Source of the DNA: Candidatus Bipolaricaulota bacterium
GTDB lineage: Bacteria; Bipolaricaulota; Bipolaricaulia; M55B111
Assembly: GCA_021735245.1 (NCBI GenBank)
Contig: JAIPHJ010000006.1
Span: forward strand, 2,610 to 66,609
Direction: 5' to 3'
DNA: 64,000 bases
The notes under the pieces are model-generated. The model worked only from the letters and a program-made list of their open reading frames with translations, was not told the origin of the DNA and searched no databases. The position numbers and the translations under genes are program-made. Positions 6,695 to 59,287 of the stretch are shown piece after piece. The number at the start of each line of letters is the position of its first letter. Within the stretch, counting starts at the first letter, position 1.

Positions 6695-9337
6695 TTAGCT
6701 TATTGAACAGGTACTCCAGCCACACTCTACACATTTATTGCAGCCACCTTCGTGAATTACCTGCCCCCCACAATCCGGGCATTCATCTAGTTCTTCGACC
6801 TGATTAAGCGGGTGGGTGTCGTCGTCTTCCAGAAGGTCCTTGTTCTGTGGTTTGTCGCTCCTTAAGGATTCGGAAAAATTCTGAGTCTCCCAGTATTTAT
6901 CCCCTTCGGGAGTATTGGCGAACTCTTCCTCCAGGAAGTTCTTAACGTAGTCACTGGGCTCTAAGTTTCTTTCCTTGGCGTTTTCTCCATCCATGTTCAG
7001 TACCTGGCGGGATTTCGATCCGTCTCTATAGACGGTAAGTCCCTTCAGACCAAGCTTGTGGGCAAGCATAAAGGCGTTGAGTATATCGTCCGGGGTAGCG
7101 CTGCTTGGCATGTTGATTGTTTTAGAAATGGATGCTGTAACCCAATCCTGCCAGGAAGCCTGAGCCGTGAGGTGGTCCGTGTAATGAATGTCGAGAGCGG
7201 TAACGAATACTTCCTTTAAGTCGTCCGGTATTTCTTCGAGGCCGGCAAGACTCCCGTAGTTCTCGTTTATTTTTTGAAGAAGTTCTTCGCTGTACATTCC
7301 CCTTTCCTTTAAGCGATCCTCGAATACTCCGTTCGCGTAATAGAAGTCACCGGCAGTCACGTTCTTTTCGTAAGCCAGCGAAAACTCCGGTTCTATTCCG
7401 TGAGAGGTGTCTGCGATCATTGATATACTGCCCGTAGGTGCAATGGTGGTGGTCATTCCGTTCCGAATACCGTTTTGCTTGATGGATTCTATTAAGGCGT
7501 CCCAGTCTTTCTGATGTGTTTCTCTTTCGTAGTAGCCGGCAATCGGAATCTCACCTTCCGGATAACTAGATTCCTCGTAAAGCGGGAAGCTGCCTCGCTC
7601 CTTCGCAAGCTCCACGGATTCGTTCATGGAGTAGTAAGAGAGCGATTCAGCGAGTTTTTCCATCTTCTTGTAACCCTGTTCGGAATTGTAGGGAGTGGAA
7701 CTGTCGTAAAGCATATCCGATAGCCCCATTACCCCCAGACCTACCTTTCTGGTAGCCTTCGTAGACTGCTCGATTTTTTCCAGAGGGAAGTTGTTCATGT
7801 CCAGAACGTTATCCAGGAAGCGGGTTGCATTGCGTATTGTTTCTTCGTATTTGTCCCAGTCGAACCCTTCTTCTCCGAGTAATTTGTGAAGGTTGATCGA
7901 GCCCAGATTGCAGGATTCGTATTCGTACAGCGGTTGCTCGCCGCAGGGATTTGTACCTCTAATTTTTCCTTTGGCCGGCTCGAGCACGTTGTATTCATTT
8001 ATCCTGTCGAAGAAAATCATTCCCGGGTCCGCCGATTCCCACGCCGAGTGGGCAATTAGCTCGAGCAAAGCTTTGGGATTCTCGCGGGAGACTACCTGTT
8101 CCGTTCTGGGATTAATCAGTTCGAATTCTGATTTTTCCTCGCTTTTTAGAGACTCCCAGAAACTTTCGACAGTCCCGACGGAGATGTTGAAGTTTTCCAG
8201 CTTGCCTTCCTTCTGTTTTACGTTGATAAAGTCCTTTATGTCGGGATGATCTATATTTATTATGCCCATGTTCGCCCCTCGCCTCTTTCCGCCCTGTTTT
8301 ACTACGTCAGTAACCGTGTCGATAATTCTCATGAAGGATATCGGGCCGGAGGCGACTCCCGAAGTGGAGGCAACGATATCTCCTTCCGGTCTCAAACTCG
8401 AGTAATTTATCCCCACACCGCCTCCACTCTGGAATATCAGGGCTGCATCTTTCGAAGCGTCCATTATTTTTCCCATGTCGTCTTCCATGGGAAGCACGAA
8501 ACAGGCGCTCAACTGACCAAGTCTCGTGCCCGCATTCATCAAAGTGGGGCTATTTGGAAGAAATTTCTGGGTTACCATCATGTCGAAATAGGTTTGCCAG
8601 TCCTGGTGGTATTTGTCGAAGTAACCGTTGTCCATCAGGTCCAGGAATTTCGAAAAGTCCACCTTCATGTGTCCGTCCTCGGCAAGGTTCGAGAAAAGCT
8701 CGGCCATGGACTTGAACGTCCACTGGTTGATCCGGTGGTCGGCGAAATTATACCGATTTCCGTAATCCCGGAACGAGGAAAGATACTTTTTCGTGAGTTC
8801 CCCGGTTACAGAATATCCGCCCTGACGGTCAAACACTCGATCGTCTCTCATCAAGTCGGGAATAGTCACGTTTGTTGCGACCCTTTCGAAGAGTTCCTTC
8901 GGCGACTCTACGATCTTTCCTTCCCCGTCCCTCAGGAGATACCGAGAAGCCAGCACCCGAAGTGCTTTTAGGCTGAATTGTTTTCCGACGCTCCCGATTT
9001 TTGCCCGGTTAAGAAGTTTTTCTTTTTCTCGTCTCTTTTGTCTGTGCTCCTGTCGGTAAAGTATGTACGTTTTTGCAGTCGAGTAATGTCCCTCTTCGAT
9101 TAAAATTTTCTCAACCGTGTCCTGGATGTCTTCTACTTCCGGGAATTCTTCTTCTCCAAATTCCACGTCACCGTATCTTTCCTCCAGGTCCCCGGTTACT
9201 TTTCTTGCTAATTCATCTGCCCGGTTGACAGCTGACGACCCGGAAGCCTGGGCCGCTTTCAATATTGCGTCTCTTATCTTGGCTTGATCAAAATCAACGA
9301 TGGAACCGTCTCGTTTCTTGACTTTTTTTGTTTCCAC
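6695..9337 (-). CDS. nrdJ: Class II (adenosylcobalamin-dependent) ribonucleotide reductase with N-terminal ATP-cone and C-terminal Cys-rich zinc ribbon
   Basis: 880 aa. ATP-cone VKKRDGSIVDFDQAKIRDAILKA; active-site region TNPCGEQPLYEYESCNLGSINL; C-terminal CPDCGGQVIHEGGCNKCVECGWSTC. GTG start with GAGGTGG upstream. Confidence 0.9.
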   Translation of the reverse strand: METKKVKKRDGSIVDFDQAKIRDAILKAAQASGSSAVNRADELARKVTGDLEERYGDVEFGEEEFPEVEDIQDTVEKILIEEGHYSTAKTYILYRQEHRQKRREKEKLLNRAKIGSVGKQFSLKALRVLASRYLLRDGEGKIVESPKELFERVATNVTIPDLMRDDRVFDRQGGYSVTGELTKKYLSSFRDYGNRYNFADHRINQWTFKSMAELFSNLAEDGHMKVDFSKFLDLMDNGYFDKYHQDWQTYFDMMVTQKFLPNSPTLMNAGTRLGQLSACFVLPMEDDMGKIMDASKDAALIFQSGGGVGINYSSLRPEGDIVASTSGVASGPISFMRIIDTVTDVVKQGGKRRGANMGIINIDHPDIKDFINVKQKEGKLENFNISVGTVESFWESLKSEEKSEFELINPRTEQVVSRENPKALLELIAHSAWESADPGMIFFDRINEYNVLEPAKGKIRGTNPCGEQPLYEYESCNLGSINLHKLLGEEGFDWDKYEETIRNATRFLDNVLDMNNFPLEKIEQSTKATRKVGLGVMGLSDMLYDSSTPYNSEQGYKKMEKLAESLSYYSMNESVELAKERGSFPLYEESSYPEGEIPIAGYYERETHQKDWDALIESIKQNGIRNGMTTTIAPTGSISMIADTSHGIEPEFSLAYEKNVTAGDFYYANGVFEDRLKERGMYSEELLQKINENYGSLAGLEEIPDDLKEVFVTALDIHYTDHLTAQASWQDWVTASISKTINMPSSATPDDILNAFMLAHKLGLKGLTVYRDGSKSRQVLNMDGENAKERNLEPSDYVKNFLEEEFANTPEGDKYWETQNFSESLRSDKPQNKDLLEDDDTHPLNQVEELDECPDCGGQVIHEGGCNKCVECGWSTCSIS

Positions 9338-9380: not shown

Positions 9381-10322
9381 ATGAAACAAGCTGGGGGTTT
9401 CAGCGGGGGTAGCTTTGTAACCGCGTATGATCCGATAACTCCGAGCATTATATCTCATAGTTTCCTTCTACCGGGAAGTCAAGAACTAATCGAGACTCTG
9501 GCGGTTTTTAACGGAACTGTCACGTCTGATTTGTTTTTAAACGTCGGAAAGTTCGGGGTCGAACCGAAGGGTTTCGCGAACCGTAGTTTCTTGATTTCTC
9601 CCCGTGAAAGGGTTGGTCAGTTGTATCAATCACGACGCTGCTTTACACTTTTCATTAATATGCCTCAGTATTACGTTGAAACCGACGGAAAAATATATCT
9701 GACTGAATCGGGAAAAGTCTTGAAATTTCCCCGTTCGCGGGAGGAAATACCTTTCGAAATCCGGCCAAAATCCAGGATGGTGGTGGAGTCGAAAGAGATT
9801 GTTTATTCGGAGCCGGTTCTCTCTTACCACCCTCAGCAATGGTTAAACAAAGAGGACGTTCCGCTGATGGACGACGTGGATCCTATCGTTAGAAAAGCGG
9901 TAAATTTCTCGCTTCCCCGTCTCGTTGTGGAGGCAGTGATCCGCGATTCGGACAAAGTTTTACTGGTAAAACCCTCGAGAGGGTATAACGAAGATCGCTG
10001 GACTCTGCCCGGGGGGTTCCTGGTTTACGGTGAAACGCCCGCGGAAGCTGTTCGAAGGGAGGTCGAGGAAGAGGTTGGAGCCAAACCGAGTATAGCCGGA
10101 TTGGTTAACGTTTACAGCACAATAGGTGCGGAAAACAGCTATCAGTGGGTAATATTCTACTTCTCTGCCAAAGTTCCCGGCGATCCCGGGGATTTACGAC
10201 CAAACCACGAAATAAAGCAACTGAGATGGTTCGATACTGATGAGGCGGCCGAAGCAATTCATAGCCCCGTGATGCAAAACGGGTTTCGGCAAATATTCGA
10301 CGAGGATAAAGGGACGGCTTAA
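9381..10322 (+). CDS. NUDIX hydrolase (start uncertain: 9381 as in the ORF track, or ATG at 9660)
   Basis: Nudix box GGFLVYGETPAEAVRREVEEEVG in the C-terminal half. The first 93 codons have no recognisable domain and overlap what may instead be the nrdJ leader/promoter region. Confidence 0.75.
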   Translation: MKQAGGFSGGSFVTAYDPITPSIISHSFLLPGSQELIETLAVFNGTVTSDLFLNVGKFGVEPKGFANRSFLISPRERVGQLYQSRRCFTLFINMPQYYVETDGKIYLTESGKVLKFPRSREEIPFEIRPKSRMVVESKEIVYSEPVLSYHPQQWLNKEDVPLMDDVDPIVRKAVNFSLPRLVVEAVIRDSDKVLLVKPSRGYNEDRWTLPGGFLVYGETPAEAVRREVEEEVGAKPSIAGLVNVYSTIGAENSYQWVIFYFSAKVPGDPGDLRPNHEIKQLRWFDTDEAAEAIHSPVMQNGFRQIFDEDKGTA

Positions 10323-14031: not shown

Positions 14032-15483
14032 TTATTTGGGTAAGTGAATGTTAAATCGGTCTCTAATTTTTTCGTCGACTTCTTCCGATAGGAGGTTGTC
14101 CTTCGTACTGTCCAGTAGTTTCCTTGCTCGTTTCCTGGCTCGGGCGCGAGTGTCCATTGATCCGTTATTTTCCCAGGTGGTTCTGTCTTCACGATCGACT
14201 ACGCTCGGCTTGTAAAATTCCTCCGACCGGGAGTAATTTACGGTATGTTGCTGGGTAAGAAAGTTATTACCCGGTCCTACCTCTTCGATTACATCCAGGC
14301 CGATCCTATCCTCGTCCACCTCGATTCCCCGGAGAACTCTCAGAGCCATTCCAATAACGTCGTTGTCGATAACGAACTTTTCGTCGGCTACACAGAGCAT
14401 TGACTCCATCATTCCTGCTGCGTGGTGGATATAGTTACCACCTGCAAGTCCGACCTGAAGCATGTTGAGGGCGGCTTCGGCCCCCGCCTGTGTATCGGGC
14501 AATTTGGAGTCACTCTCTCCTGCGTCGGAATATATTGGGACGTCGATGTGGTCTGCCAGTTGAACTGTCGCGACGTTCATCATCCCCGTCTCAGGTGCCC
14601 CCGCCAGGTAGGCCATGTTCTTCATATTGGCCGCAGCCGGGACGGGTCCGTAGAGAACAGGAGCTCCTTCAGAAAACATCTGGGCTAGAGTAATCCCGAA
14701 CAGCACTTCTGCGTGGACCTGAGCAAGCAGGCCCGATAGAGTTGCGGGAGCTGTAGAGCCGGTGACCGGTGCCGTAGATAGGACAACGGGGAGTTCGTAA
14801 TCGGTTATTCTTCTGAGAACTTTTGTAGTTTCCGTATCCAATTTTAACGGGCTTACCATCCAGCTGGTTACGAATGAAATGAAGGGTCGGGCAAGAAATT
14901 CCTCCCTGGAGCCGGCTATTATCGCCCCCATATTTACTATTTCATCAACCTTTTCCGGTCTGGTCACCGATTCCTGAACGTTCTTGAAAGTTCCGGTAAG
15001 GCTTGCGTAGATACTGTTCAGACTCAGGTCCTCCTCGGGCACGTCGGTTGGCACCACGGGAGTTTGAAAGAAGTGAACGTTTTCCAGCTTCTCGACTAGT
15101 CGTGCCAGTCTTGCCTGATCCTCAAGAGTTGGGGGCCGGACCTCCTCGGAATTCAGGTCCAGTATTTTTACAGCCGCTCCCCCCGTCCCGTAGTGAACTT
15201 TTCTGTCCTCAAGGTTTAGGTCGTATTCTTCCTTTCTTCCGTGCAGGGTTACCTTAGACGGGGCAAGTTCGAGGTAATCTCTAACTACCTCCGGTGGCAG
15301 CTTTGCTCGTCCGTTCTTATGGTTGACCCGGGCACCGTTACTATCGAGAATTTCGAGAAATTCGTCCGAATCGACCTTTACACCTACTTTTTTTAACAGT
15401 TTTAAAGCGGATTCGTGGATTAAATCCACCTCGTCATCGCTCAATAATTTAAATTTATCGCCCACTAATCCTGCGTACTTCAT
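14032..15483 (-). CDS. MttB-superfamily methyltransferase, non-pyrrolysine type (second, divergent paralogue)
   Basis: 483 aa. LLSDDEVDLIHESALKLLKKVGVKVDSDEFLEILDSNGARVN..AKLPPEVVRDYLELAP. Full length with no internal TAG. Confidence 0.85.
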   Translation of the reverse strand: MKYAGLVGDKFKLLSDDEVDLIHESALKLLKKVGVKVDSDEFLEILDSNGARVNHKNGRAKLPPEVVRDYLELAPSKVTLHGRKEEYDLNLEDRKVHYGTGGAAVKILDLNSEEVRPPTLEDQARLARLVEKLENVHFFQTPVVPTDVPEEDLSLNSIYASLTGTFKNVQESVTRPEKVDEIVNMGAIIAGSREEFLARPFISFVTSWMVSPLKLDTETTKVLRRITDYELPVVLSTAPVTGSTAPATLSGLLAQVHAEVLFGITLAQMFSEGAPVLYGPVPAAANMKNMAYLAGAPETGMMNVATVQLADHIDVPIYSDAGESDSKLPDTQAGAEAALNMLQVGLAGGNYIHHAAGMMESMLCVADEKFVIDNDVIGMALRVLRGIEVDEDRIGLDVIEEVGPGNNFLTQQHTVNYSRSEEFYKPSVVDREDRTTWENNGSMDTRARARKRARKLLDSTKDNLLSEEVDEKIRDRFNIHLPK

Positions 15484-19305: not shown

Positions 19306-20022
19306 TTAACCTTTCTTTAGTCCTCTGGGCGTCATTACCGCCTCGAATCCACCGAGTAGCGTGTCCAGTATTACCGCGAGTGCGGCAGTCGGAGCGGCAC
19401 CCTGGACTATCAGTAGAGGGATCTGAGTGTAAAGGCCAGTTAGGATTATCTTACCCAAGCCCTCTCCCCCGACGAGTACTGCAAGGGTGGCGGTCCCGAC
19501 ACATATCACGGTTGAAGTCCTTATACCGGCCATTATCACCGGTCGGGCGAGGGGCAATTCTATCCTCCAGGCAATTTGAGTGCGCGACATCCCCATGCCT
19601 TTGGCCGATTCGATTATTGCCGGATCGATGTCGCTTATCCCGGCGTAAGAATTTCTCAACACGGGGAGAAGGGAGTAAACAAATAAGGCGATTATCGCCG
19701 AGTTAAAACCGTAACCCAGGATCGGTGCCATTATGGCAATGACCGCCAGGCTTGGTATCGTTTGTCCCACGTTCGCGGCCCCGACTATTGGAGTGGCGAA
19801 TTTTTTCAACCCCGGTCTGGTAACGAATATTCCAAGTGGGACCCCGATACCGATGGCGAGTAACTCCGCTATTCCGACCATCTTAAGATGGTTCCACGTC
19901 TGTCTTCCTATGTCGGAGTAAGTTTTCGGTTGCATGTACTTCAGACTTCCCATCTCAGTAATCCATATCGTCACGCCTATGAAGATACTGAGGAGAATTA
20001 TTAGAACTATTCTTCGTCTCAT
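19306..20022 (-). CDS. ABC transporter permease (OpuBB/OpuCB-like)
   Basis: 238 aa, BPD-type permease with an EAA-like loop (IESAKGMGMSRTQIAWRIELPLA). 4-nt overlap with the ATPase gene. Confidence 0.85.
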   Translation of the reverse strand: MRRRIVLIILLSIFIGVTIWITEMGSLKYMQPKTYSDIGRQTWNHLKMVGIAELLAIGIGVPLGIFVTRPGLKKFATPIVGAANVGQTIPSLAVIAIMAPILGYGFNSAIIALFVYSLLPVLRNSYAGISDIDPAIIESAKGMGMSRTQIAWRIELPLARPVIMAGIRTSTVICVGTATLAVLVGGEGLGKIILTGLYTQIPLLIVQGAAPTAALAVILDTLLGGFEAVMTPRGLKKG

Positions 20023-21158
20023 CTTGGTACCTCAGGGTGTTTTCCACCGCTTTCGGTATAAGTTTCACCGATCAACCCCTGCAGGTCGTTGAAGGTCAAC
20101 AACCCCCTCAAACTGTTGTTCCCGTCGACCACCGGTATGTTCGCAACGTCGCGTTCGAGCATGACAGTCAGGGCGTCTGCGAGATTCGTTCCTATTTCCG
20201 CCGCACCCGTGTCAGTAACCATAGCGTCAGTTACCTTTCCCTGTCCTGTTTCCTCGACGTCTTCCCGATTGATCCAGCCCTTTAGCTTGTTTCCGTTCTC
20301 GACTACTATCAGGTAATTGACTCCTTCTTCCTCCATTATGCGGCCTACGGATTCGAGATCCTGGTCCTCTTTTACAACCCTTGGTGATTCTTTCATGGCT
20401 TCGTCGACCTTCATTAGCCGCAGGCTCTTCAGGGTCCTGTCGCTTCCCACGAAATCCCGGACAAACCTGTTCTTAGGGGCCGCGAGGAGTTCCGCCGGTT
20501 GAGAGTATTGAATTAACTTTCCCTCTTTAAGCAACGCCACTTTGTCCCCCATCTTTATTGCCTCGTTTATGTCGTGGGTGACGAAGACGATGGTTTTTTG
20601 TATCTCGTTTTGAATCTTTAAAAACTCGTCCTGAAGTCTGTCCCTGGTTATTGGATCAATTGCGCCGAACGGTTCGTCCATGAGCATAATCGGGGGATCC
20701 GCTCCGAGCGATCTGGCGACTCCAACTCGCTGTCTCTGCCCGCCGGAAAGCTCCGAGGGATACTTGTCAATAAATTCATCCGGATCCATTCCCATTAAGT
20801 TAAGGAGATTTCTTGCTCTCTCCTTTTTTTCCTCGTCCGACCATTTTTTCAGAGTTGGTACCGTGGCGATGTTTTCACCGACAGTCATGTGAGGGAAAAG
20901 GCCTATCTCCTGTATGGCGTAGCCCATTTCCCGCCTGAGCTCGTTCTCGTCCATTTCCCGGTTGTCGGTGCCGTCGATATAGATGTGGCCTTCGGTGATT
21001 GGAATAAGGCGATTGATCATTTTCATCGTCGTGGTTTTACCGCAGCCCGAAGGACCGAGCAAGACACACAGCTCCCCCTCTTTTATTTCGAAAGTAACGC
21101 CTTTCACCGCTTCCGTGCCGTCCTGATAGACTTTCTTTACGTTCTCTAGTTTTATCAT
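20019..21158 (-). CDS. ABC transporter ATP-binding protein with C-terminal tandem CBS domains (OpuCA/ProV-like)
   Basis: 379 aa. Walker A GPSGCGKTT, signature LSGGQRQRV, Walker B IMLMDEP, and a C-terminal CBS pair. Confidence 0.9.
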   Translation of the reverse strand: MIKLENVKKVYQDGTEAVKGVTFEIKEGELCVLLGPSGCGKTTTMKMINRLIPITEGHIYIDGTDNREMDENELRREMGYAIQEIGLFPHMTVGENIATVPTLKKWSDEEKKERARNLLNLMGMDPDEFIDKYPSELSGGQRQRVGVARSLGADPPIMLMDEPFGAIDPITRDRLQDEFLKIQNEIQKTIVFVTHDINEAIKMGDKVALLKEGKLIQYSQPAELLAAPKNRFVRDFVGSDRTLKSLRLMKVDEAMKESPRVVKEDQDLESVGRIMEEEGVNYLIVVENGNKLKGWINREDVEETGQGKVTDAMVTDTGAAEIGTNLADALTVMLERDVANIPVVDGNNSLRGLLTFNDLQGLIGETYTESGGKHPEVPR

Positions 21159-21820
21159 TTTTTCAACCCTTCCGGTGTAAATTTTTTCTCTGCCAGGGCC
21201 AACAAACCGTCAACCAACAAAGCCAGGACCGAAACGAAAACGGCCCCGGTTATGATCATGTCCGTTCTGGACGTTCTTAGGCCACGAAAAATTGGTACTC
21301 CTAATCCTCTCGCGCCAATAAAGACAGCGATGGTAGCAATACCGATGTTTATAACGACTGCGTTCCGGAGACCGGCCATGATCACCGGTACTGCCAGAGG
21401 AAGTTTGATTTTAAAAAGAATCTGTCTTGGAGTCATACCCATTCCCCTTCCAGCCTCAATCATAGCAGGATCCACTTCCCTGATTGCGGTGTAAGTATTC
21501 CTCAGAATAGGTAATTGTCCGTACAGGATTAAAGCTATGACAGCGGGTAGGAACCCGAGAGATGGTAGGTTTAGGGCTGAGAGCAAGGGCATAAGCAGGC
21601 CGAAGAGGGCCAGACTTGGGATCGTCATCATGATACCCGCCAGGTACAGAACCGTATCCGCGACTTCTTCCCTGCCTTTTCCGGCGATAAATATTCCGAG
21701 CGTTACACCGATGAAAACTGCGAAAGAGTTTGACACGAGGATGAGCCAGAGGTGATCCAGCGTCCAGCTTCCAATTGTGACCCAATGTCCATTAATATAG
21801 TTCCAGACTTCCATTTCCAC
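21155..21820 (-). CDS. ABC transporter permease (OpuBD/OpuCD-like)
   Basis: 221 aa, BPD permease with an EAA loop (IEAGRGMGMTPRQILFKIKLPLA). 4-nt overlap with the ATPase gene. Confidence 0.85.
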   Translation of the reverse strand: MEMEVWNYINGHWVTIGSWTLDHLWLILVSNSFAVFIGVTLGIFIAGKGREEVADTVLYLAGIMMTIPSLALFGLLMPLLSALNLPSLGFLPAVIALILYGQLPILRNTYTAIREVDPAMIEAGRGMGMTPRQILFKIKLPLAVPVIMAGLRNAVVINIGIATIAVFIGARGLGVPIFRGLRTSRTDMIITGAVFVSVLALLVDGLLALAEKKFTPEGLKK

Positions 21821-22673: not shown

Positions 22674-22942
22674 TCACCAAAACTTGCCGAGGAAGCCCCA
22701 CCGCTTGCTGTGGGGAGGAATCGGCTGTTTTTTGTCCTCCAGCACTCAAACGGGAACTGGTTTTCTTTGAGAGGTTCGATTGCTTGTTTTTAGTTAATCA
22801 TTACCTTTAGACTAATCAAGATACCCGGGTCCGTTTGAGTGCTGGAGGATTGACTGCTGGGTCTTCTTTTGTAAAAGAACAAAGTCCGTAGTTAAACCTG
22901 TTTTTCTACAAGCCCCGTCCCTTGGGGCGTGGTTCTTGACTT
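22674..22942. repeat. Family-A structured intergenic repeat, copy 1 (269 bp)
   Basis: Shares with 56057-56441 the left end TCACCAAAACTTGCCGAGgAAG-CCCC..GGGG-AgGAAT. It also shares a ~140-bp near-identical core with an 18-bp perfect inverted repeat (22736-22753 / 22831-22848, CCTCCAGCACTCAAACGG), and a right-end hairpin followed by TTGACT (22936-22941). Confidence 0.85.
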
Positions 22943-23631: not shown

Positions 23632-23708
23632 TGGTGCGCCCGGGAGGATTCGAACCCCCGACCTACGGATCCGCAATCCGTCGCTCTCATCCACTGAGCT
23701 ACGGGCGC
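23632..23708 (-). tRNA. tRNA-Arg, anticodon GCG, CCA encoded
   Basis: The reverse complement folds by hand as GCGCCCG TA GCTC AGTGGATGA GAGC G ACGGA TTGCGGA TCCGT AGGTC GGGGG TTCGAAT CCTCC CGGGCGC A CCA. All four stems pair, with one G.U in the T stem. Confidence 0.9.
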
Positions 23709-23799
23709 TTGATTTCTCGATTCTGAGCTACCGCCCTCGACCATGAACCCGGAAAATCACTAGATTATCGATTTCTCGAGTCGACGGCTAGAGTTCCAA

Positions 23800-24639
23800 A
23801 TGAAGTCGTCTAATCCGTCGTACTCTTTCAACCAAGAAGATGGTACAAAGTTAACCAGAAATGATCAACCGGATGAAAGTGTGGAGGTTGCCGAAGCAAT
23901 TGATCGTTTTTTAAGTGACAAGAGGTTGCAGGGTCTATCAGATAGGACTCTGGACCAGTACGAAGAAGTACTGGGGTGGTTTCATGGTTTTCTGGATGAT
24001 GGAGACGTCTTAATTGACGAAGTTACTGAGGTAACTGTTAAAAAGTACCTGAACGGATTGATATACCGTGGGCTAAAGATCACCACGGTGGCTATCAGAT
24101 TCAGGGTCTTACGCTCTTTCTTCAATTGGACTGAGGGCCGGGCGCTGATAGACAGGTCACCCATGGAAGATATGTAGGAACCGAAGACCCCTAAGAAATT
24201 CCCCTATGTGCTTGATGAAGAGGAGGTAGACCAATTACTCGAGACCGCTAAAGGATATACCAATAAGTGGACGGGAATCCGAGACTATACGATGGTACTT
24301 CTCTTACTGGATGCTGGACTACGGGCAACGGAGATACTGGAAGCAAAAAAGGAGAACCTAAACCTAGAACGCCGTTCTCTCAAGATCCACGGCAAAGGAG
24401 CCAAAGACAGAAAAGTATTTTTCGGCACCCAGGCCCGTAAATGGCTAAAGCAGTGGCTGCAGGTAAGAGAGGATATATCCAATCCCGTCGTGGAGAATAT
24501 ACTATTCGTTGATCTAAATGGTAATCAGATAAAGCAACGAAACCTCACCCGGATTATCAACAGGTTACAGAAGAGAGCTGACCTTCCTGTAGTGCAAGCT
24601 ACTCTACTTAACATGTCATACTCGGTTAATTGCAAATAA
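23800..24639 (+). pseudogene. Tyrosine recombinase/integrase, inactivated (in-frame TAG at 24175-24177 and C-terminal truncation)
   Basis: ORFs 23800-24177 (SAM-like N-domain) and 24208-24639 (start of the catalytic domain with GLRATE and HGKGAKDR) are in the same frame, separated only by one TAG. The reading frame ends before the H-x-x-R and catalytic Tyr region. Confidence 0.75.
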
Positions 24640-24696
24640 ATGCATTTCCACGTATCTTTATATACTCGTTAGGATGTTTGCAGATGGAGGAATATC

Positions 24697-24972
24697 GTGA
24701 GTAAAACAAATAATCCCAACCAAAACAGGATCTCGTTCGAAAAACTCGCTGAAACGAGCCCCACAGCCATTACAGAAGTAGATAAACAAGGTGAAATAGT
24801 ATATGCCAACAGCAGAGCAGAAGAGGTGCTGGGGCTTAAAAAAACCAAGATAACCGAAAGGACTTACGATGACCTCGACTGGAAAATTACTGATTTCGAA
24901 GGAAACGACTTCCCCCCAAGAACTTGCCTTTCGAGATCGTCAAGAGAACGGAAGAACCAGTCTACGACGTAA
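24697..24972 (+). CDS. N-terminal PAS fragment of the downstream HD-GYP sensor (separated by a 1-nt frameshift at a C6AA tract)
   Basis: GTG start with GGAGGA upstream. The PAS core SPTAITEVDKQGEIVYANSRAEEVLGL..YDDLDWKITDFEGNDFPP continues seamlessly in the frame of ORF 24924-27233 (..LPFEIVKRTEEPVYDVRHAIEWPDGERKLLSVNASPLFDEDG). Confidence 0.7.
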   Translation: MSKTNNPNQNRISFEKLAETSPTAITEVDKQGEIVYANSRAEEVLGLKKTKITERTYDDLDWKITDFEGNDFPPRTCLSRSSRERKNQSTT

Positions 24973-27233
24973 GACACGCAATAGAATGGCCTGATGGGGA
25001 ACGGAAATTACTATCAGTAAATGCCAGCCCCCTGTTCGACGAAGACGGTGGATTTGACGGTATGGTGGCGGTCATTGAAGCCATCACCGAGCAATTTAAA
25101 AATCAAAGGAAGCTCGAAGAGAGCAAAAAACGCTACAAACAACTATTCACCGAAACCAATGAAGGGGGTGCCCTCCACGAGCTCATCTATGACGACGAAG
25201 GCAACCCGATTGATTACACGATTCTCGAAGTAAACTCCAACTTTGAGTCGATAATTGGATTAACTGAAGGCGAGGTCAAAGGTAAAAAGGCAACCGAAGT
25301 CTACGATCGAGAGAAACCTCCTTATCTTGACCGTTACGCAGAGGTAGCAATTAATGGAGAACCGACCAGCTTTGAGACCTACTACGAACCACTAGGCAAG
25401 CATTTCAAGATATCCGTCTTCTCTCCGGAGAAGGATAAGTTTGCTACCGTGTTTACCGATATTACGGAACGAAAAGAAGCTAAAGAGAACTTAAAAGAGA
25501 GCGAGCAGCGTTACAGGAGACTTTTCGAGACCGCCCAGGATGGAATGCTGATCCTGAATGCGGATACCGGCAAGATAATAGATGCCAACCCCTTCATCCG
25601 GAACCTTTTAGGTTTTTCCAAACATGAACTGGTAGGTAAACAGCTCTGGCAAATAGGTAAGTTTCAGGATATTGTAGAAAATAGGGATAAGTTCAAAAAG
25701 CTCGTAGAAGAAGGCTACATTCGTTACGAACACCTGCCACTTAAGACAAAAAGTGGAGAAGAAGCTTCGGTCGAATTCGTTAGTAACACTTACGAGGTGA
25801 ACAGTCAAAAGATAGTCCAATGCAACATCAGGGATGTAACCGAACGCAAAGAAGCCAACGAAAAACTGGAGAAAGCAGTAAAGCAGTTCAGACAGGCCTT
25901 CCAGTTTGCCCCGTATCCCATGATGATCCATGCCGAAGATAGTCAGGTTATCGCTATCAACGATGCGTGGTTGGACATAACAGGTTGCGAAGGAGAAGAT
26001 ATTTCCACCATCTCTGATTGGACTGAAAAGGCCTATGAAGAAGCAAAAAATAATGTTACAGAGCATATCGAAAAGCTATACGAGCTTGAAGAACGGTTCG
26101 ACGAAGGCGAATACGAAATCCGGACAAAGGAAGGAGAGACGAGGGTCTGGGATTTCAGCTCCGCCCCGCTTGGCAAGGCAATAGGGGACGAAAGACGTTT
26201 AGTATTGAGCATGGCCGTTGACGTTACCGCACGAAAAAAGGTAATGTCTGAACTGAAAGAAAAAGAAAAAGAGATGTCCGTACTCTTCAACAACCTGCCC
26301 GGAATGGCCTACAGGTGTGAAAACAACAGGGAATGGACTATGAAGTTCGTTAGTCAGGGGGCCAGAGAGCTAACTGGTTACCATCCGGAAGATCTTATCG
26401 ATAACGCTTTGGTTTCATACGGAGAATTAATTGTTCCCGAAGATAGAGATAAAGTATGGAATGAAGTTCAACAGGCTCTTGATTCTGATCAACCCTTTCA
26501 GTTCGAATACAGGATAGAGACCAAGGAAGGGCAGGAAAAATACGTCTGGGAAAGGGGAAGAGGAGTATACACAGATAAAGGTGAATTGAAAAACCTGCAG
26601 GGTTTTATCAGCGATATAACCGAACGCAAAAATGCCCAAAAAGAACTTCGCCAGTCTTTCATAGAGCTTGCCGAGACCACCTCCAGAGTCTTAGGGGTCC
26701 GGGACCCGTACACCGAACAACACGAACAAAGAGTAGCCGAACTCGCACGGGAAGTTGGTAAAAGGATGGGTTTAGGGGATGACAAACTGCTGGGTCTATA
26801 TATTGGTGGTGTGTTACATGACATAGGGAAGATAGTCGTGCCGGAGACCATCCTGACAAAACCCGGCGAGCTAAAAGATGTCGAATGGCAAATGATAAGA
26901 TCACACCCGGAAGTAGGCTACAACCAGATACTGGAAGACACCGACTTCCCATGGCCCGTTGCCGAGATGACGCTCCACCACCACGAACGACTGGACGGTT
27001 CGGGTTATCCGGATGGACTGGAAGAAAATGAACTAACCACCGAAGTCAGGATACTCGGAGCGGTTGACGTGCTAGAAGCGATGAGCACCAGAAGGCCTTA
27101 CAGGGCAGCCAGAACGAAAGAGGAGACCCTTGAAGAGATAAAGAAGGGCAAAGAAGATAAGTACGATCCTAAAGTGGTTGACATACTTACCCAAATGATA
27201 GAAGAGGGAGAGATTCAGTTTGGAGGAAAGTAA
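24924..27233 (+). CDS. Multi-PAS sensor with C-terminal HD-GYP domain (c-di-GMP phosphodiesterase type)
   Basis: 769 aa. Several PAS repeats each end in DITERK/DVTERK. The C-terminal HD-GYP has HDIGKI and HHHERLDGSGYPDGL. The true N-terminus is probably at 24697 (see the previous feature). Confidence 0.85.
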   Translation: MPFEIVKRTEEPVYDVRHAIEWPDGERKLLSVNASPLFDEDGGFDGMVAVIEAITEQFKNQRKLEESKKRYKQLFTETNEGGALHELIYDDEGNPIDYTILEVNSNFESIIGLTEGEVKGKKATEVYDREKPPYLDRYAEVAINGEPTSFETYYEPLGKHFKISVFSPEKDKFATVFTDITERKEAKENLKESEQRYRRLFETAQDGMLILNADTGKIIDANPFIRNLLGFSKHELVGKQLWQIGKFQDIVENRDKFKKLVEEGYIRYEHLPLKTKSGEEASVEFVSNTYEVNSQKIVQCNIRDVTERKEANEKLEKAVKQFRQAFQFAPYPMMIHAEDSQVIAINDAWLDITGCEGEDISTISDWTEKAYEEAKNNVTEHIEKLYELEERFDEGEYEIRTKEGETRVWDFSSAPLGKAIGDERRLVLSMAVDVTARKKVMSELKEKEKEMSVLFNNLPGMAYRCENNREWTMKFVSQGARELTGYHPEDLIDNALVSYGELIVPEDRDKVWNEVQQALDSDQPFQFEYRIETKEGQEKYVWERGRGVYTDKGELKNLQGFISDITERKNAQKELRQSFIELAETTSRVLGVRDPYTEQHEQRVAELAREVGKRMGLGDDKLLGLYIGGVLHDIGKIVVPETILTKPGELKDVEWQMIRSHPEVGYNQILEDTDFPWPVAEMTLHHHERLDGSGYPDGLEENELTTEVRILGAVDVLEAMSTRRPYRAARTKEETLEEIKKGKEDKYDPKVVDILTQMIEEGEIQFGGK

Positions 27234-27235
27234 CG

Positions 27236-30097
27236 ATGGAGTTTACTGACCGTAACTGTCAGGAGTTTATGGAACAGCTACCGGAAGCGGTGTTCCTCGA
27301 GACACTGGAGGGAGATATACTCGACGTCAACAAAGAGGCCTGCGAGCTTCTGGGCTACAGCAAAGAAGAGCTGATCAACCTCGATGTTGAAGATCTGGAA
27401 CCGGAAGATGCCCCAATATTCCTCCCCGATCAAGTTGACGAGGCCACCCGCTCAGGGGAACCACTAAAAACGACTAAAATTAAAAAAGACGGAACAGAAG
27501 TACCTGTAGAGTTGAAGGGCAAAATTCTTGAGATCGAGGGCCAAAAGAGAGTTCTGGTAACCGTCAGGGATATTTCAGAACGGGTGGAGGCAAACGAAGA
27601 ACTCAGAAGAAACAAAGAAAGGTACCAGAGTTACTTCGAAGAACTGGGAGATGCGGTCTTTATAACCAAAGCAGGCGGCGAAGATCATAGCCGGATCCTC
27701 GACGCAAACACGGCAGCGGAAGACCAGACCGGTTACTCCGAGGAAGAACTTATCGGGATGAATTTGCTGGAAAACATCACGGCAGGAGAGCCGCTCGAAA
27801 TGGATTACGAAGAAGCGGACCAAAAACTCTCCCAGGGTGAAACGATAAGTTACACCGAGAAGAAGAGGCGAAAGGGTGGCACTGAATACTGGACCGAGGT
27901 GGTTGTAACCCCTATTGAACACGAAGGTGAGCGGGCAAACCTTTCCATCAACAGGGACATAACTGAACGGATGCAGGTAAAAGACCGGCTCGAACAGTAC
28001 AAAATGGCCGTGCAAGGTTCGGACGATTTAATAGCTACCTGCGACGAAGACTATAACTATATCTTTGCAAACCCGGCCTACAGAAGCTATTACGAAGTAG
28101 GGGAAAAGGAGATACGTAACTATAAATTAGGGGACTTGATCAGCGACCCTGCCTTTGAAAATGAGGTCAAGCCTCGGGTGGACAGGTGCCTGCAGGGTGA
28201 GAGGATAGACTACGAGATGGAACGTACTCATCCTACAAAAGGACCGAGGCAACTAAGGATAATGTACTATCCCCTCAAAAGTGAAGAGGGAATACACGGT
28301 GTAGTAGCGGTCATGAGAGATGTCACGGAAGTAAAAGAGATCGAGAAACAACTTGAAGAAACAAACGAGAGGCTCAGACAGAGCAGGGAAAGGTACAAGC
28401 GTTACTTCGATGAGCTTGGGGATGCAGTATTTATAACCAAAGTTGGCGAAGAAGATCACGGCTCCATTCTGGACGCAAACTCGGCCGCAGAAGACCAGAC
28501 AGGCTACCCCCTAAATGAATTGATCGGAATGAATATCGCAGATGACTTTACGGTGGGCAGGCCGGAGGAGTTAAGTTATGAAGAAATCGATGATAAATTG
28601 TCAAAAGGGGAGACAGTAAGCTTTACCGAAAAGAAGAGAAGAAAAGACGGAAATATCTACTGGACAGAAGTAATGGTCACTCTGATCGAGCACGAAGGAG
28701 ATCCCGCCACGCTTTCCATAAACAGGGATATTACCGAACGTAAGAGAACTGAACAAAAGCTAAAGCAAAGTCAGGAAAGACTACAGCTAGCCCTTGAAGG
28801 AACCGAAGCGGGAATATGGGACTGGAACTTTCAGACAGGGGAAGTAGTCTTTAATGAAAAGTGGGCTGAAATCATCGGCTATACGCTAGAAGAGCTCCAT
28901 CCTGTTACTATGGAAACGTGGGAGGAATTAGCTCATCCTGAGGATCTTAAGCGTTCGGAGGAGCTTCTGGAGAAACACGTTGACGGTGAAACCGAGGTTT
29001 ACGAGTGCGAAGTCCGGGTGAAGCACAAGAACGGGGACTGGATCTGGGTACTGACTCGGGGCAGAGTCGTGGATTGGGACGAGCAAGGGGAGCCGATCCG
29101 AATGGTGGGAACTCATCAGGTTATAACCGAAAGGAAGAAAGTGGAACAGGAGTTAAACGAGGAGCGGGATAAATTAAGACATCTCCATGATGCAGTGGAT
29201 CAGCTGCAACAGCAAAATGACGAAGAAAGTATCCTCCAGACTGCAGTCGAAGTTTCCGAAAGTATCCTAGATTTCGAACTCTGTGCTATCGACCTGATCG
29301 AAGGTGAATATCTCGAAACAAAAGCCATCTCCTCAGGCCTAAGCATTGACCAAACCAGTAAATATAAAATAGGAGAAGGAATTGGTGGATTAACAGCCGA
29401 GCGGGGTGAAACTATCTGGGAAGACGATTTAAGAGAACACCCTGAAGCCAAACCCACGAATAAAGAATTCCGGGCCATTATCAGCGTACCTATTGGTGAG
29501 GTCGGTGTTTTTCAGGTAGTTTCCAAGGAGGTGGGAAGTTTCGACAAAGAGGACGTGGAACTTGCCGAGATCTTATCCAATCACTTGCGGGAGGAAATAA
29601 GTCGAGTCCGTTTAGAAGAAGACCTGCGCCAGCAGGCAATACACGACCCCCTTACCGGGCTTTACAATAGAAGACATTTCAACATAACCCTCGATAAAGA
29701 AGTGGAAAGGTGTGCACGATACGGTCACAACTTGGCCTTCATAATGATTGACGTCAACCGATTTAAGGAAATAAATGATCGTTACTCCCACCAGACGGGG
29801 GATGAAGTGCTCCAGGAGGTCGCAGAACTGCTGCAAGCCAACGTAAGGGATGCAGATACCGTAGTCAGGTACGGTGGCGACGAGTTCCTGATTATGATGC
29901 CCGAGACCAATGGCGAGGCAGATACCACGGTAAAGCGACTCAGGAACAAGATTAAGGAGTGGAACGATGAATCCGATTTGCTGGACTTCCCCCTGACTCT
30001 GGCAATGGGAATATCTCACTGGAGCCCTGAAGAAGATATAGATGTGGAAGCGGCGCTTAAGAAATCGGACATAAATATGTACGGAGACAAGGGTTGA
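27236..30097 (+). CDS. Multi-PAS / GAF / GGDEF diguanylate cyclase
   Basis: 953 aa. PAS repeats, a GAF-like region, and a GGDEF domain with DPLTGLYNRRHF and RYGGDEFLIMMPE. The ATG lies 2 nt after the HD-GYP stop, with GGAGGAAAG inside the upstream gene's end. Confidence 0.9.
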   Translation: MEFTDRNCQEFMEQLPEAVFLETLEGDILDVNKEACELLGYSKEELINLDVEDLEPEDAPIFLPDQVDEATRSGEPLKTTKIKKDGTEVPVELKGKILEIEGQKRVLVTVRDISERVEANEELRRNKERYQSYFEELGDAVFITKAGGEDHSRILDANTAAEDQTGYSEEELIGMNLLENITAGEPLEMDYEEADQKLSQGETISYTEKKRRKGGTEYWTEVVVTPIEHEGERANLSINRDITERMQVKDRLEQYKMAVQGSDDLIATCDEDYNYIFANPAYRSYYEVGEKEIRNYKLGDLISDPAFENEVKPRVDRCLQGERIDYEMERTHPTKGPRQLRIMYYPLKSEEGIHGVVAVMRDVTEVKEIEKQLEETNERLRQSRERYKRYFDELGDAVFITKVGEEDHGSILDANSAAEDQTGYPLNELIGMNIADDFTVGRPEELSYEEIDDKLSKGETVSFTEKKRRKDGNIYWTEVMVTLIEHEGDPATLSINRDITERKRTEQKLKQSQERLQLALEGTEAGIWDWNFQTGEVVFNEKWAEIIGYTLEELHPVTMETWEELAHPEDLKRSEELLEKHVDGETEVYECEVRVKHKNGDWIWVLTRGRVVDWDEQGEPIRMVGTHQVITERKKVEQELNEERDKLRHLHDAVDQLQQQNDEESILQTAVEVSESILDFELCAIDLIEGEYLETKAISSGLSIDQTSKYKIGEGIGGLTAERGETIWEDDLREHPEAKPTNKEFRAIISVPIGEVGVFQVVSKEVGSFDKEDVELAEILSNHLREEISRVRLEEDLRQQAIHDPLTGLYNRRHFNITLDKEVERCARYGHNLAFIMIDVNRFKEINDRYSHQTGDEVLQEVAELLQANVRDADTVVRYGGDEFLIMMPETNGEADTTVKRLRNKIKEWNDESDLLDFPLTLAMGISHWSPEEDIDVEAALKKSDINMYGDKG

Positions 30098-30398
30098 TAG
30101 GTAAACCGTCAGTTTTTATCGCAAATAAAAGCTGCCCTCCTTACCGAACCGGTGTAGACGCCGCACCTTGCTTAAACTTCCGATAATACGTCTTAAAGGT
30201 CCTTGAATATTATTCCCCTCTCAGCTGGATATAATAGGGAGTTTATACCTTCATTCCTACTTACTCTATAATGCCCGTCCAAGGAGGTGATGAGGTGAAA
30301 AAGACAATAGCAACTTTAATGGTCTGTGTCTTTTGTGGCACTCTCGTAACCCCCTTGCTTTAGCCCAAGGGTAAAGTTCGGCCTACCGACGAGGCTAC

Positions 30399-30626
30399 AT
30401 GAAAGGAAAGGAAGCCGCGAATCAGGACATAAACAGGTTGGTTGGGGGTTTTGGGGGAGCACTCTGGGGAGTCTTTGCTTTTTTCTTATCCGGTTGTGGT
30501 TTCACTAACTAGCCACCAAACGCTAGTTTTAGCGCTAGTCCTACAAGCGGAGATGCACCACTAGAAGTATCGTTTGATGCTTCCGGTTCCTCGGATTCTG
30601 ACGGAAGCATAAGTTGCGTTGTGTAA
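30399..30626 (+). pseudogene. Remnant of a lipoprotein with PKD-like domain (in-frame TAG at 30510-30512, truncated)
   Basis: Manual translation gives MKGKEAANQDINRLVGGFGGALWGVFAFFLSGCGFTN* (lipobox-like LSGC), then in the same frame PPNASFSASPTSGDAPLEVSFDASGSSDSDGSISCVV* (start of a PKD-type fold). Upstream, 30295-30363 encodes an orphan signal-peptide-like 22-aa ORF behind TATAAT and AAGGAGG. Confidence 0.4.
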
Positions 30627-30704
30627 CAGGATGAATCTCCTTACCGGGTCCAAATCTCCTTGAAAACTTTCTCTTCACCATGAAAATAAATCGGTGCGTT
30701 TTAA

Positions 30705-31814
30705 ATGGAAGAAAACCTAAAACAGAATTTTCGGTTCACCCTTGAGGAGTTTTCCGGAGCATTCGGGGACTCCATAACCGTGATTCCGCTCCTGATAGGG
30801 ATCGGTATTACAACGGAAGTAGGTCTACCACACCTGCTTCTGTTCTTCGCCGTTTTTCAAATAACCACCGGACTTTTCTATCGCCTGCCGATGCCGGTGG
30901 AACCAATGAAGGCGCTCGCCGGGCTAACAATTGCCGGGACGCTAACTTACGAACAGGCAATCGCGGCAGGGCTTGTGCTTGGTATCATGCTCTTGACCAC
31001 GGGGTCTTTGGGAGTGATGAAATGGCTGGACGAATTAGTCCCGGTTAGCGTGGTTCGGGGAGTTCAGCTCGGACTCGGTTTTCTCCTTCTGCGGACATCT
31101 ATCGGATACATAACTGATAAGGTCTGGCTGTCGTCCGCCGGAATAGGAATAGTGCTGGTCTTCCTCTTCCTGAAGAAAAAATACTCGGCTCCGGACCTTT
31201 CTGCCTTTATTGTCCTCCTGCTGGGAGTAGCCTACGGGGTTTACTTCAACGGAGCGCCTGATATTGCGATTATGGAGCTACCCGAGTTCCATTTCCCGAA
31301 CATGGCTGATTTTCCCAGAGGGGTTGCCCTCGGGGCTTTTCCTCAGTTCTTTCTGAGCGTCGGTAATGCTATACTGGCCACTTCGCTGTTGTTCAGGGAC
31401 TTACTTGACAGAGAGGTCGACCCTGACAGGCTGTCCCAGTCCATGGGGGTTATGTGTATCGTTTCCAGCCTGTTCGGCGGCTTCCCCGCCTGCCACGGAT
31501 CCGGGGGCCTTTCCGGGCAGTACAGGTTCGGGGCCCGGACGGGCGGTTCCAACCTGATCCTGGGGACGGTCTATCTGGGAATAGCGTTAATTGCCGGTTC
31601 GGCAGGGTTTTTAAACTTCTTTCCTCTGTCCGTTCTGGGTGCGCTGCTTGTATTCATCGGCCTCGAGTTGTGCCTGGCGGCGAGTCAAACTGACAAGTGG
31701 CATATAACGCTGACAGTAGGGATAGTCTCGCTGTTCACGAATATAGCTATTGGGTTCGGAGCCGGGTTGGTACTGGGAAAAACAATTAGTTATAAACAAA
31801 AAGTCGAGAAGTGA
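30705..31814 (+). CDS. SulP-related / MOT1-like inorganic anion (sulfate or molybdate) transporter
   Basis: 369 aa, polytopic. The N-terminal FRFTLEEFSGAFGDSITVIPLLIG resembles the conserved start of the MOT1/'putative sulfate transporter' family as I recall it. Confidence 0.6.
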   Translation: MEENLKQNFRFTLEEFSGAFGDSITVIPLLIGIGITTEVGLPHLLLFFAVFQITTGLFYRLPMPVEPMKALAGLTIAGTLTYEQAIAAGLVLGIMLLTTGSLGVMKWLDELVPVSVVRGVQLGLGFLLLRTSIGYITDKVWLSSAGIGIVLVFLFLKKKYSAPDLSAFIVLLLGVAYGVYFNGAPDIAIMELPEFHFPNMADFPRGVALGAFPQFFLSVGNAILATSLLFRDLLDREVDPDRLSQSMGVMCIVSSLFGGFPACHGSGGLSGQYRFGARTGGSNLILGTVYLGIALIAGSAGFLNFFPLSVLGALLVFIGLELCLAASQTDKWHITLTVGIVSLFTNIAIGFGAGLVLGKTISYKQKVEK

Positions 31815-31817
31815 AGG

Positions 31818-31906
31818 TGGCGGAGGAGGTGGGACTCGAACCCACAGGGCCATACGGCCTTACCGGTTTTCGAGACCGGCTCCTTGCCAAATTCGGTCAC
31901 TCCTCC
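31818..31906 (-). tRNA. tRNA-Ser, anticodon CGA, long variable arm, CCA encoded
   Basis: The reverse complement is GGAGGAG TG ACCGAATTTGGCAAGGAGC CGGT CTCGAAA ACCG G TAAGGCCGTATGGCCCTG TGGG TTCGAGT CCCA CCTCCTCC G CCA. It aligns position by position with the class II Ser tRNA architecture. Confidence 0.9.
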
Positions 31907-37949: not shown

Positions 37950-37977
37950 TAGCAGGCCGGGCCCCCGTGCCCGGTCG
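37950..37977 (-). repeat. Family-B GC-rich hairpin repeat, copy C (minus orientation)
   Basis: The reverse complement CGACCGGGCACGGGGGCCCGGCCTGCTA matches the core CG-N-CCGGGC-R-CGGGG-R-CCCGG-S-CTGCTA seen at 59288 and 60775. Confidence 0.7.
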
Positions 37978-38058
37978 ATAGTTTCGATACCGACCTTCCG
38001 CGCGGACAATGGGAGCCCGCGCTGGTACTGGGACTTAAGTCAATCTCAAAGAAAAGCT

Positions 38059-59272: not shown

Positions 59273-59287
59273 CTATATCAACCAAAC

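Follow-up and report, generated by a model that had tools for sequence, protein, structure and literature searches.

Repetitive extragenic palindromic (REP) sequences and bacterial interspersed mosaic elements (BIMEs) of Enterobacteria and Pseudomonas are built on imperfect palindromes of 20 to 40 nt, carry a GTAG (or equivalent) motif directly 5' of the palindrome and have a cognate RAYT gene (TnpA-REP, of the Y1 HUH type), which is often flanked by the repeats. The BOX elements of Streptococcus pneumoniae (boxA-boxB(n)-boxC) and the ERIC/IRU sequences combine fixed end modules with variable internal modules. Palindrome-associated transposable elements (PATEs) share the ends of IS200/IS605, which inserts 3' of a conserved tetra- or pentanucleotide at its left end, and classical miniature inverted-repeat transposable elements (MITEs) include Correia/CREE, RUP and Nezha. 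To our knowledge, no mobile-element biology has been described for the candidate phylum Bipolaricaulota. Here, we analyzed a stretch of 64,000 nucleotides from a Candidatus Bipolaricaulota bacterium (contig JAIPHJ010000006.1, positions 2,610 to 66,609; hereafter the window), focusing on a hairpin-rich intergenic element termed copy 1 (Table 1). The element belongs to a previously undescribed, non-coding, hairpin-rich mosaic repeat family in the intergenic DNA of halophilic Bipolaricaulota. It is probably a non-autonomous, REP/BIME-like mosaic palindromic repeat that is spread in trans, and it is neither a classical MITE, nor an IS200/IS605 PATE, nor a new RNA gene.

Copy 1 measures 268 nt and has sharp ends, which are common to approximately 90 other copies. 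Its 3' end is formed by TTGACT (22936-22941). A first-pass annotation of the window had listed the architecture of copy 1, and this list was recovered base for base, except that the length of 269 bp given there is one too many, the true 3' end being position 22941. Module A is itself a palindrome of 64 nt, although an imperfect one (CAAAAC pairs with GTTTTTG and GCCGA with TCGGC, in addition to the 8-bp hairpin 1), and scores 86 bits against a covariance model of this 5' module (R1). The 18-bp arms of the T1 core, CCTCCAGCACTCAAACGG (22736-22753) and its exact reverse complement (22831-22848), enclose a 77-nt loop. By our own arithmetic, chance would produce approximately 1e-4 perfect 18-bp inverted repeats within 100 nt in a 64-kb sequence. 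The adjoining ATTGACTGCTGGGTC is identical to the right arm of CCAGCAGTCAAT...ATTGACTGCTGG cores. On both strands, the element folds far more stably than shuffled sequences, with -104 kcal/mol (z = -5.9) on the plus strand and -93 kcal/mol (z = -5.4) on the minus strand.

The leader 18-mer TCACCAAAACTTGCCGAG was scanned against one genome per prokaryotic species (596 Gb), resulting in 73 genome loci and approximately 66 copies with the family architecture, from 13 species-level metagenome-assembled genome (MAG) assemblies, 12 of which are of the Bipolaricaulota type. The search of related MAGs that the first-pass annotation had proposed thus yielded both a copy count and defined ends. Nine matches lie in unrelated phyla, isolated and without the architecture; these are chance matches, of which approximately 17 were expected in 596 Gb. 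Among the 13 assemblies, six are labeled Candidatus Bipolaricaulota or Bipolaricaulia (Great Salt Lake and other saline sites) and six "uncultured Thermotogae," and the remaining one is a 2-kb "Hadarchaeota" contig that was probably mis-binned. Synteny with the window, at 71 to 84% nucleotide identity, is seen for at least one "uncultured Thermotogae" assembly (locus L053; family loci carry L numbers throughout) and for the Bipolaricaulota locus L031. A single fragmented MAG holds at least 19 copies with the exact leader. In metagenomes, 30 loci contain the 18-mer, adding approximately 22 family copies. The proposed covariance model scan was fruitful as well, since R1 finds 63 matches in 466 kb of family loci, some of them in copies with a leader that no longer agrees with the 18-mer. 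The 18-mer was not found in viral contigs, copy 1 has no plasmid or phage match (distant blastn), and a full-text literature search returned no paper describing repeats in Bipolaricaulota or Acetothermia.

The family is also apparent from the way in which assemblies break. Approximately one-third of the 18-mer matches lie within 200 nt of a contig end, and in the window's own sample the Logan contigs terminate wherever one of the three intact window copies lies, which is the signature of a multicopy repeat. Copy 1 shares 97.8% identity over 271 nt with an element in another MAG (L036, 3619-3889) whose flanks are unrelated.

The flanks of 36 complete copies diverge exactly before TCACC and after TTGACT. 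Neither flank of these 36 copies contains a conserved motif, the sole signal being a T at position -1 in half of them (18/36). Direct repeats of at least 2 nt at the junctions occur in 4 of 46 copies, compared to 4.1 expected from shuffled pairings, and there is no target-site duplication around a lone core that lacks the frame (L019, 5040-5150). The reverse complement of the 5' end (GTTTTGGTGA) agrees with the 3' end (GTTCTTGACT) at 6 of 10 positions, so the element has no terminal inverted repeats; long inverted arms are confined to the nested core. These results bear out the earlier description, namely a non-coding repeat that is non-autonomous, carries a hairpin near each end and shows neither terminal inverted repeats nor target-site duplications.

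Pairing in hairpin 1 is retained at 96% over 37 distinct sequences of module A. Compensatory double changes affect four of the eight pairs (C-G/U-A, A-U/G-C, G-C/C-G and G-C/A-U), and none of 500 shuffles reaches the observed covariation score. The GCCGA/TCGGC stem is invariant and therefore uninformative on selection for pairing. Hairpin 2 also varies with compensation, and its pair 6 is frequently a T.G wobble on the plus strand, equivalent to an A.C mismatch on the minus strand, which mildly favors the plus strand as the folded one. Judged from these substitution patterns, the hairpins are conserved in shape and appear to be under selection.

The family shares a polar frame, which consists of a 22-nt leader, the GC-rich hairpin 1, AGGAATCGGCTGG, a long palindromic core, a spacer, the GC-rich hairpin 2 and TTCTTGACT. 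Module A comprises the leader, hairpin 1, AGGAATCGGCTGG and usually TTTTTGT. Module C exists in at least three alternative versions, and module D consists of hairpin 2 followed by TTCTTGACT or TAATTGACT, a trailer present in 33 of 36 copies. The cores have 15- to 21-bp arms with the common terminus CCAGCA[CG]TCAA and loops of 60 to 90 nt. At least five core sequence types occur, each in both orientations relative to module A (T1, 6:1; T2, 4:12; T3, 6:4; T4, 9:3; T5, 7:1). For example, the T1 core of the window type lies in L009 in the opposite orientation within the frame. Cores are separable from the frame: the frame-less core in L019 has been mentioned, a core-like unit sits between leader and hairpin 1 in L008, L035, L037 and L011, tandem or extra right arms occur in the window (22849-22863) and in L083, and the element at L012-6233 has modules A, C and D without a core. 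Mini elements of 51 to 59 nt (L038, L066, L006, L092, L049, L047 and L052) are reduced to leader, one hairpin and trailer. Their hairpins are often chimeric and mismatched (e.g., CCCCACAGC/GCTGCGGGG), which fits deletion between the two hairpins better than an ancestral form. In addition, L058 closes directly after the TTGACT of its core arm, and L076 is a tail-to-tail doublet with one shared hairpin 2.

Comparison of related genomes indicates turnover at individual sites. The L031 locus has a 265-nt element in a spacer that is empty at the orthologous window position (approximately 52200-52267), with flanks that are 75 to 82% identical. The decayed window copy at 9472-9607 is orthologous to an intact one in L053 (7247-7492); both run TCAC...TTCTTGACT and have the same downstream flank (tcccggtag...), and the window copy has lost both hairpins present in its counterpart. 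At another orthologous site, beside orthologous genes, the L009 and L067 elements differ in their hairpins and core types. Filled and empty sites, together with internal modules replaced between retained ends at approximately 75% coding identity, indicate that the family is old. The 22-nt leader is more conserved than the adjacent coding DNA. For copy 1 itself, a flank-plus-flank pattern representing the empty site gave no matches in metagenomes. Exact-protein look-ups of five flanking genes returned no empty allele; they yielded either no record or a single Logan contig, broken at the element.

The elements are unevenly oriented. Of the 16 copies located between co-directional genes, 13 lie antisense and 3 sense (p = 0.02; crude open reading frame [ORF] calls). 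In 23 of 36 cases, the element's 5' end points toward a gene start, which is not significant. Each of the three intact copies in the window runs antisense to its minus-strand neighbors; most window genes lie on that strand, with a negative GC skew. On the plus strand, T-runs follow the stems of module A (TGGTTTTTGT), the core (GGGTCTTCTTTTG) and hairpin 2 (TTCTTGACT), and hairpin 2 was flagged as terminator-like. A sense copy would therefore be expected to act as a terminator and be polar in operons, so that selection against it would leave mostly antisense copies. Replication-linked insertion bias is an alternative cause, inseparable here from the polarity explanation.

Consistent with the first-pass annotation, which had named no matching RNA family, Rfam 15 at gathering threshold identified just two tRNAs and PYLIS_3 in the whole window, all outside the elements. 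A permissive Rfam scan of both long copies (E up to 10) gave noise of the kind that generic long hairpins produce, at best 21 to 25 bits versus 65 to 69 (WsnRNA46, 21 versus 65; MIR6201, 25 versus 69), and HEARO reached 16 bits versus a gathering score of 83. No promoter-like site was found inside the element. Likewise, there is no ORF inside any of approximately 95 copies, and none of them encloses tnpA or tnpB. Genes for a partner enzyme were sought in the 707 kb of DNA that surrounds the repeats and that covers little of each genome. No multicopy cluster appeared among 429 ORFs, and this DNA showed no HUH+Y motif (crude regex), no Y1-like ORF and no homologue of E. coli RayT (phmmer, E up to 10). 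The proposed search for TnpA(Y1)/RAYT came back empty in this sample.

Several other roles were considered and rejected. In L013, module A seemed to lead into a Cys-rich ORF, which is the 3' end of topA beside a truncated element. Donation of a Shine-Dalgarno sequence by the GGTGA end is not a general role: a start codon lies 6 to 7 nt downstream of this end in L036 and L056, whereas the genes at the window copies have their own promoter or Shine-Dalgarno sequence. Hybrid promoters formed by the outward -35-like TTGACT find no consistent orientation of downstream genes. An integron attC reading fails because the R'' (RYYYAAC)...R' (GTTRRRY) boxes are absent at the ends and housekeeping genes separate the copies, which are spaced approximately 16 kb from one another. 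On sequence, Xer/dif and sigma-54 were likewise rejected.

We propose, with modest confidence, that these repeats would be spread and maintained in trans by an enzyme encoded by the host or by an insertion sequence. Such an enzyme would read the conserved leader or trailer plus the shape of the adjacent hairpin, probably on single-stranded DNA, following the logic of REP/RAYT and other HUH systems. Since the ends are asymmetric and hairpin-adjacent and leave no duplication, a single-stranded-DNA route appears the most plausible. The core would be a second, nested palindromic unit, for which the data do not discriminate between independent insertion and flipping, the latter through recombination or template switching between the arms. 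The elements themselves would be mostly genomic passengers.

A number of observations weigh against this proposal. The GTAG hallmark of REP sequences is absent before the hairpins, and no mobilizing enzyme was found in the sampled 707 kb. The single-stranded-DNA step is one that we infer from the form of the ends, and the G.T versus A.C asymmetry is clear for hairpin 2 only, where it may reflect one inherited wobble. The orientation bias comes from 16 cases and crude ORF calls. At the filled/empty site, the flanks are just 75 to 82% identical, so that gain is indistinguishable from loss and the exact junctions are unreadable. Finally, retention at orthologous sites across genomes of approximately 75% identity could mean function instead of passenger status.

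Other forms of mobility were weighed against spread in trans as a REP/BIME-like repeat. The 22-nt leader conserved across at least 12 species, the shape-conserved hairpins and the TTGACT terminus, joined to fixed asymmetric ends with no target motif, duplication or partner gene, might betray an undescribed mobilization system, such as a lineage-specific domesticated HUH-like or other hairpin-recognizing enzyme. The presence of all five core types in both orientations might also reflect a core that actively flips with a regulatory role. We consider this pair of options unlikely. Similarly doubtful is a nesting of classical MITEs, in which the core would be moved by a DDE transposase and would repeatedly enter a preferred site of another non-autonomous element, in either orientation. 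The inverted core arms with their common terminus, the two orientations, the lone core of L019 and the extra right arms all suit such nesting, but no target-site duplication marks the cores or the whole element, and five core types always found at one frame position would require extreme target specificity. Moreover, the whole element lacks terminal inverted repeats, and the 707 kb yielded no transposase bounded by such ends. The IS200/IS605 (PATE) origin named by the first-pass annotation is more improbable still. As a deletion derivative moved as single-stranded DNA by a Y1 TnpA, the element would be expected to have asymmetric ends with subterminal hairpins (here 22 nt and 9 nt from the ends) and neither terminal inverted repeats nor duplications; its right end might even retain a TnpB omega-RNA scaffold, hairpin 2 wobbles show some strand asymmetry, and an orientation bias could follow replication. 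However, the 36 copies have no conserved 4- to 5-nt target at either end, the approximately 95 copies hold no tnpA or tnpB, the 707 kb around them contain no Y1-like ORF, and the HEARO score is far below its threshold. With the plus strand as active top strand on the template for lagging-strand synthesis, we would also expect the reverse of the observed polarity relative to genes.

An immobile cis-regulatory or RNA module kept by selection, for instance a terminator, insulator or mRNA-end stabilizer, is likewise improbable. Strong structure (z = -5.9), covarying hairpins, T-runs after the plus-strand stems, a terminator-like hairpin 2, the 13:3 orientation bias, persistence at orthologous sites in approximately 75%-identical genomes and a leader more conserved than its coding neighbors would all be expected of a functional module. 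In contrast, such a module would hardly come with five unrelated loop sequences, be wholly deleted of its core in the mini elements, or occur as near-identical copies at unrelated loci that break assemblies. Because antisense copies predominate between co-directional genes, the strand transcribed along with the genes is in most cases not the terminator-like one. The conserved non-coding RNA suggested by the first-pass annotation fares no better, given the missing Rfam match, the lack of an internal promoter-like site and the unrelated loci; in addition, a core found in either orientation inside a fixed frame is hard to square with one defined RNA. Segmental duplication or an assembly artifact, for which nothing speaks beyond the likeness of the two long window copies, is refuted: all flanks are unrelated, and the element is found in 13 independent assemblies and several metagenomes. 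The REP/BIME-like reading thus remains the one we favor, and of the two element types named beforehand, REP/BIME proved the better analogy (mosaic palindromic, extragenic, high-copy and multi-species), except for strict GTAG membership.

Besides copy 1, repeat finding and R1 revealed further copies in the window, which holds three intact copies plus relics (Table 1). Copy 2 is a composite, with an outer leader (56057-56078), a 93-nt insert (56079-56171), a complete inner module A (56172-56234; 60 bits against R1) and a T1 core (56234-56346). It has the same leader and hairpin-plus-TTGACT end as copy 1, in unrelated flanks. The second copy had thus been rightly recognized from its ends and core, but it closes at 56440 instead of 56441. 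The two copies share a 168-nt block (22727-22894 versus 56225-56392) with 90% identity, in which the core has two differences. The mini copy is an internal-deletion derivative. This mini copy, the two relics, the second 5' module of copy 2 and the separable core are additions to the earlier annotation.

Table 1. Copy 1, its component parts and the other family members located in the window.
Feature	Coordinates	Strand	Composition
Copy 1, complete element	22674-22941	+	Leader, hairpin 1, spacer, core, spacer module, hairpin 2, trailer
Module A	22674-22737	+	Leader TCACCAAAACTTGCCGAGGAAG, hairpin 1, AGGAATCGGCTG-TTTTTTGT
Leader TCACCAAAACTTGCCGAGGAAG	22674-22695	+	22 nt
Hairpin 1 CCCCACCGC/GCTGTGGGG	22696-22715	+	8-bp GC stem, CTTG loop
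Core, type T1	22736-22848	+	Separable palindromic unit
ATTGACTGCTGGGTC	22849-22863	+	Second right-arm remnant from another core type (T2/T4)
Spacer module C (TTCTTTTGTAAAAGAAC...GTAG...CTACAAG)	22864-22912	+	49 nt; common to many copies
Module D	22913-22941	+	Hairpin 2 (22913-22932), then trailer TTCTTGACT, the element 3' end
Copy 2, composite	56057-56440	+	Outer leader, insert, inner module A, T1 core, variant spacer, hairpin 2, AAATTGACT
Mini copy, 78 nt	39445-39522	+	Leader, hairpin 1, AGGAAT, hairpin 2 remnant, TTATTGACT; R1, 50 bits
Decayed copy	9472-9607	-	TCAC, GGGGAGAAATC ... CTCGATTAG-TTCTTGACT
Solo relic resembling the 3' module	51262-51289	+	Hairpin CCCGCCCGGAAGGGCGGG, then GTAGTTGACT

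The genes flanking copy 1 encode a Crp-family regulator and a GntR/FCD regulator (Pfam). The element lies 45 nt past the crp stop codon and 13 nt upstream of an intact -35 box, which belongs to a promoter-like site serving the GntR gene (TTGACA-17-TATTAT, 11/12; minus strand, 22660-22632). This site had been seen before, with a distance of 14 nt that is here corrected to 13 nt. Copy 1 shows no sign of harming its neighbors and is simply placed between the crp stop codon and the GntR promoter, which is intact. ABC-transporter genes (20019-21820) downstream of the GntR regulator are clustered with an MttB-like gene. The PYLIS_3 match in this region (the mttB pyrrolysine insertion sequence; 14418-14517, minus strand; 39.4 bits versus a threshold of 38) has GAG where the model has UAG and looks like a non-pyrrolysine MttB-family methyltransferase gene.

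Approximately 8 kb separate the minus-strand tRNA genes at 23635-23708 and 31821-31906, and this stretch contains large genes for PAS-domain sensors as well as a tyrosine integrase split into two parts (23800-24177 and 24208-24639). It is missing from the syntenic L053, where the crp-side tRNA and the second tRNA adjoin, and the stretch from 23635 to 31906 is probably an integrated island. Within it, a 41-nt motif (..GATATTACCGAACGCAAAGAAGC..) occurs seven times between 25452 and 28761, 360 to 960 nt apart, inside ORFs of 769 and 953 amino acids. These copies probably represent PAS-domain linkers (..DITERK..), i.e., coding repeats and no DNA element.

Other repeats were observed near family members. 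The 93-nt insert of copy 2 is GC-rich and has palindromes of its own (CCCCGGGGAACCCC...GGGGTCCCC and GGCTTCGGCC). A second, unrelated family of GC-rich palindromic repeats (..CGCCCGGGCACGGGGACCCGGGCTGCT..) is found at 59280-59321, 60652-60693 and 60767-60808, and inverted at 37950-37984; it also occurs in L103 (approximately 6900-6960), directly beside a module A of the mosaic family. Degenerate sequences resembling mini elements lie at orthologous positions in the window (approximately 51420-51465) and in L031 (approximately 500-585; TAATTAAGAAC-CCCCCAGG..CCCGGGGG-TAATGAAAATC), which suggests that intergenic DNA holds many further, unrecognizable relics.

Two family elements contain domain V-VI of a group II intron (RF00029), at L034 62-136 (+) and L012 7-81 (+), with 56 and 55 bits, respectively. 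One intron lies 3 nt past hairpin 1 on the element plus strand and the other 4 nt past hairpin 2 on the minus strand; both run off contig ends. Their placement 3 to 4 nt past element hairpins suggests that terminator-hairpin-targeting (class C-like) introns home to the repeats, making family elements landing pads for group II introns as well.

The family has practical consequences for work on these bacteria. The repeats account for the fragmented assemblies of uncultured halophilic Bipolaricaulota, whose contigs end at them, and the 18-mer TCACCAAAACTTGCCGAG offers an essentially diagnostic, lineage-specific marker. In annotation, these structured intergenic blocks of 50 to 390 nt should be masked as repeats and not called as novel non-coding RNA genes. 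The family also provides a well-bounded substrate for finding the enzyme behind REP-like repeat spread in a candidate phylum.

Compared to known systems, the family shares single traits with several classes. Similar to rolling-circle elements (IS91/ISCR and Helitron type), it starts with 5'-TC, has a GC hairpin approximately 9 nt before the 3' end and leaves no target-site duplication, and the use of an alternative internal TTGACT as the end in L058 adds to this likeness. However, its 3' end is GACT and not CTRR, there is no A|T or GTTC/CTTG target, and no Y2 Rep gene was seen. Classical MITEs are likewise small, non-coding, structured, multicopy and close to genes, and the core alone is MITE-like; the whole element differs in lacking terminal inverted repeats, and neither element nor core has a target-site duplication. 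The asymmetric ends, subterminal hairpins and absence of both kinds of repeat are shared with PATEs, in contrast to which the family has no conserved target and no autonomous relative was found, while its hairpin-to-end distances of 22 and 9 nt show no demonstrable guide or cleavage pairing.

In its composition, the family is closer to BOX and ERIC/IRU, which share its fixed ends around variable internal modules, stable secondary structure, intergenic location and lack of a known dedicated transposase. Unlike BOX, whose sequences are unrelated and stem from another phylum, it has an invertible long palindrome inside, where BOX has a tandemly repeated box. The differences from REP/BIME are that the unit is polar, with a conserved 22-nt leader and 9-nt trailer, that its 110- to 130-nt core has no REP counterpart, that GGAAG (hairpin 1) and CAAG (hairpin 2) stand where REP has GTAG, and that no RAYT gene was found in the 707 kb sampled around the repeats. 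This sample gives no support for REP/BIME membership in the strict sense of GTAG motif and RAYT partner. Nevertheless, similar to REP/BIME, the family is extragenic, high-copy and free of ORFs and target-site duplications, persists across species, and builds mosaics of short imperfect GC-rich palindromes and other motifs with units in either orientation. It likewise has shape-conserved hairpins and forms inverted doublets, such as the tail-to-tail L076. With 20-nt GC hairpins that vary in a compensatory manner, in many intergenic copies, the family can by analogy be described as REP/BIME-like.

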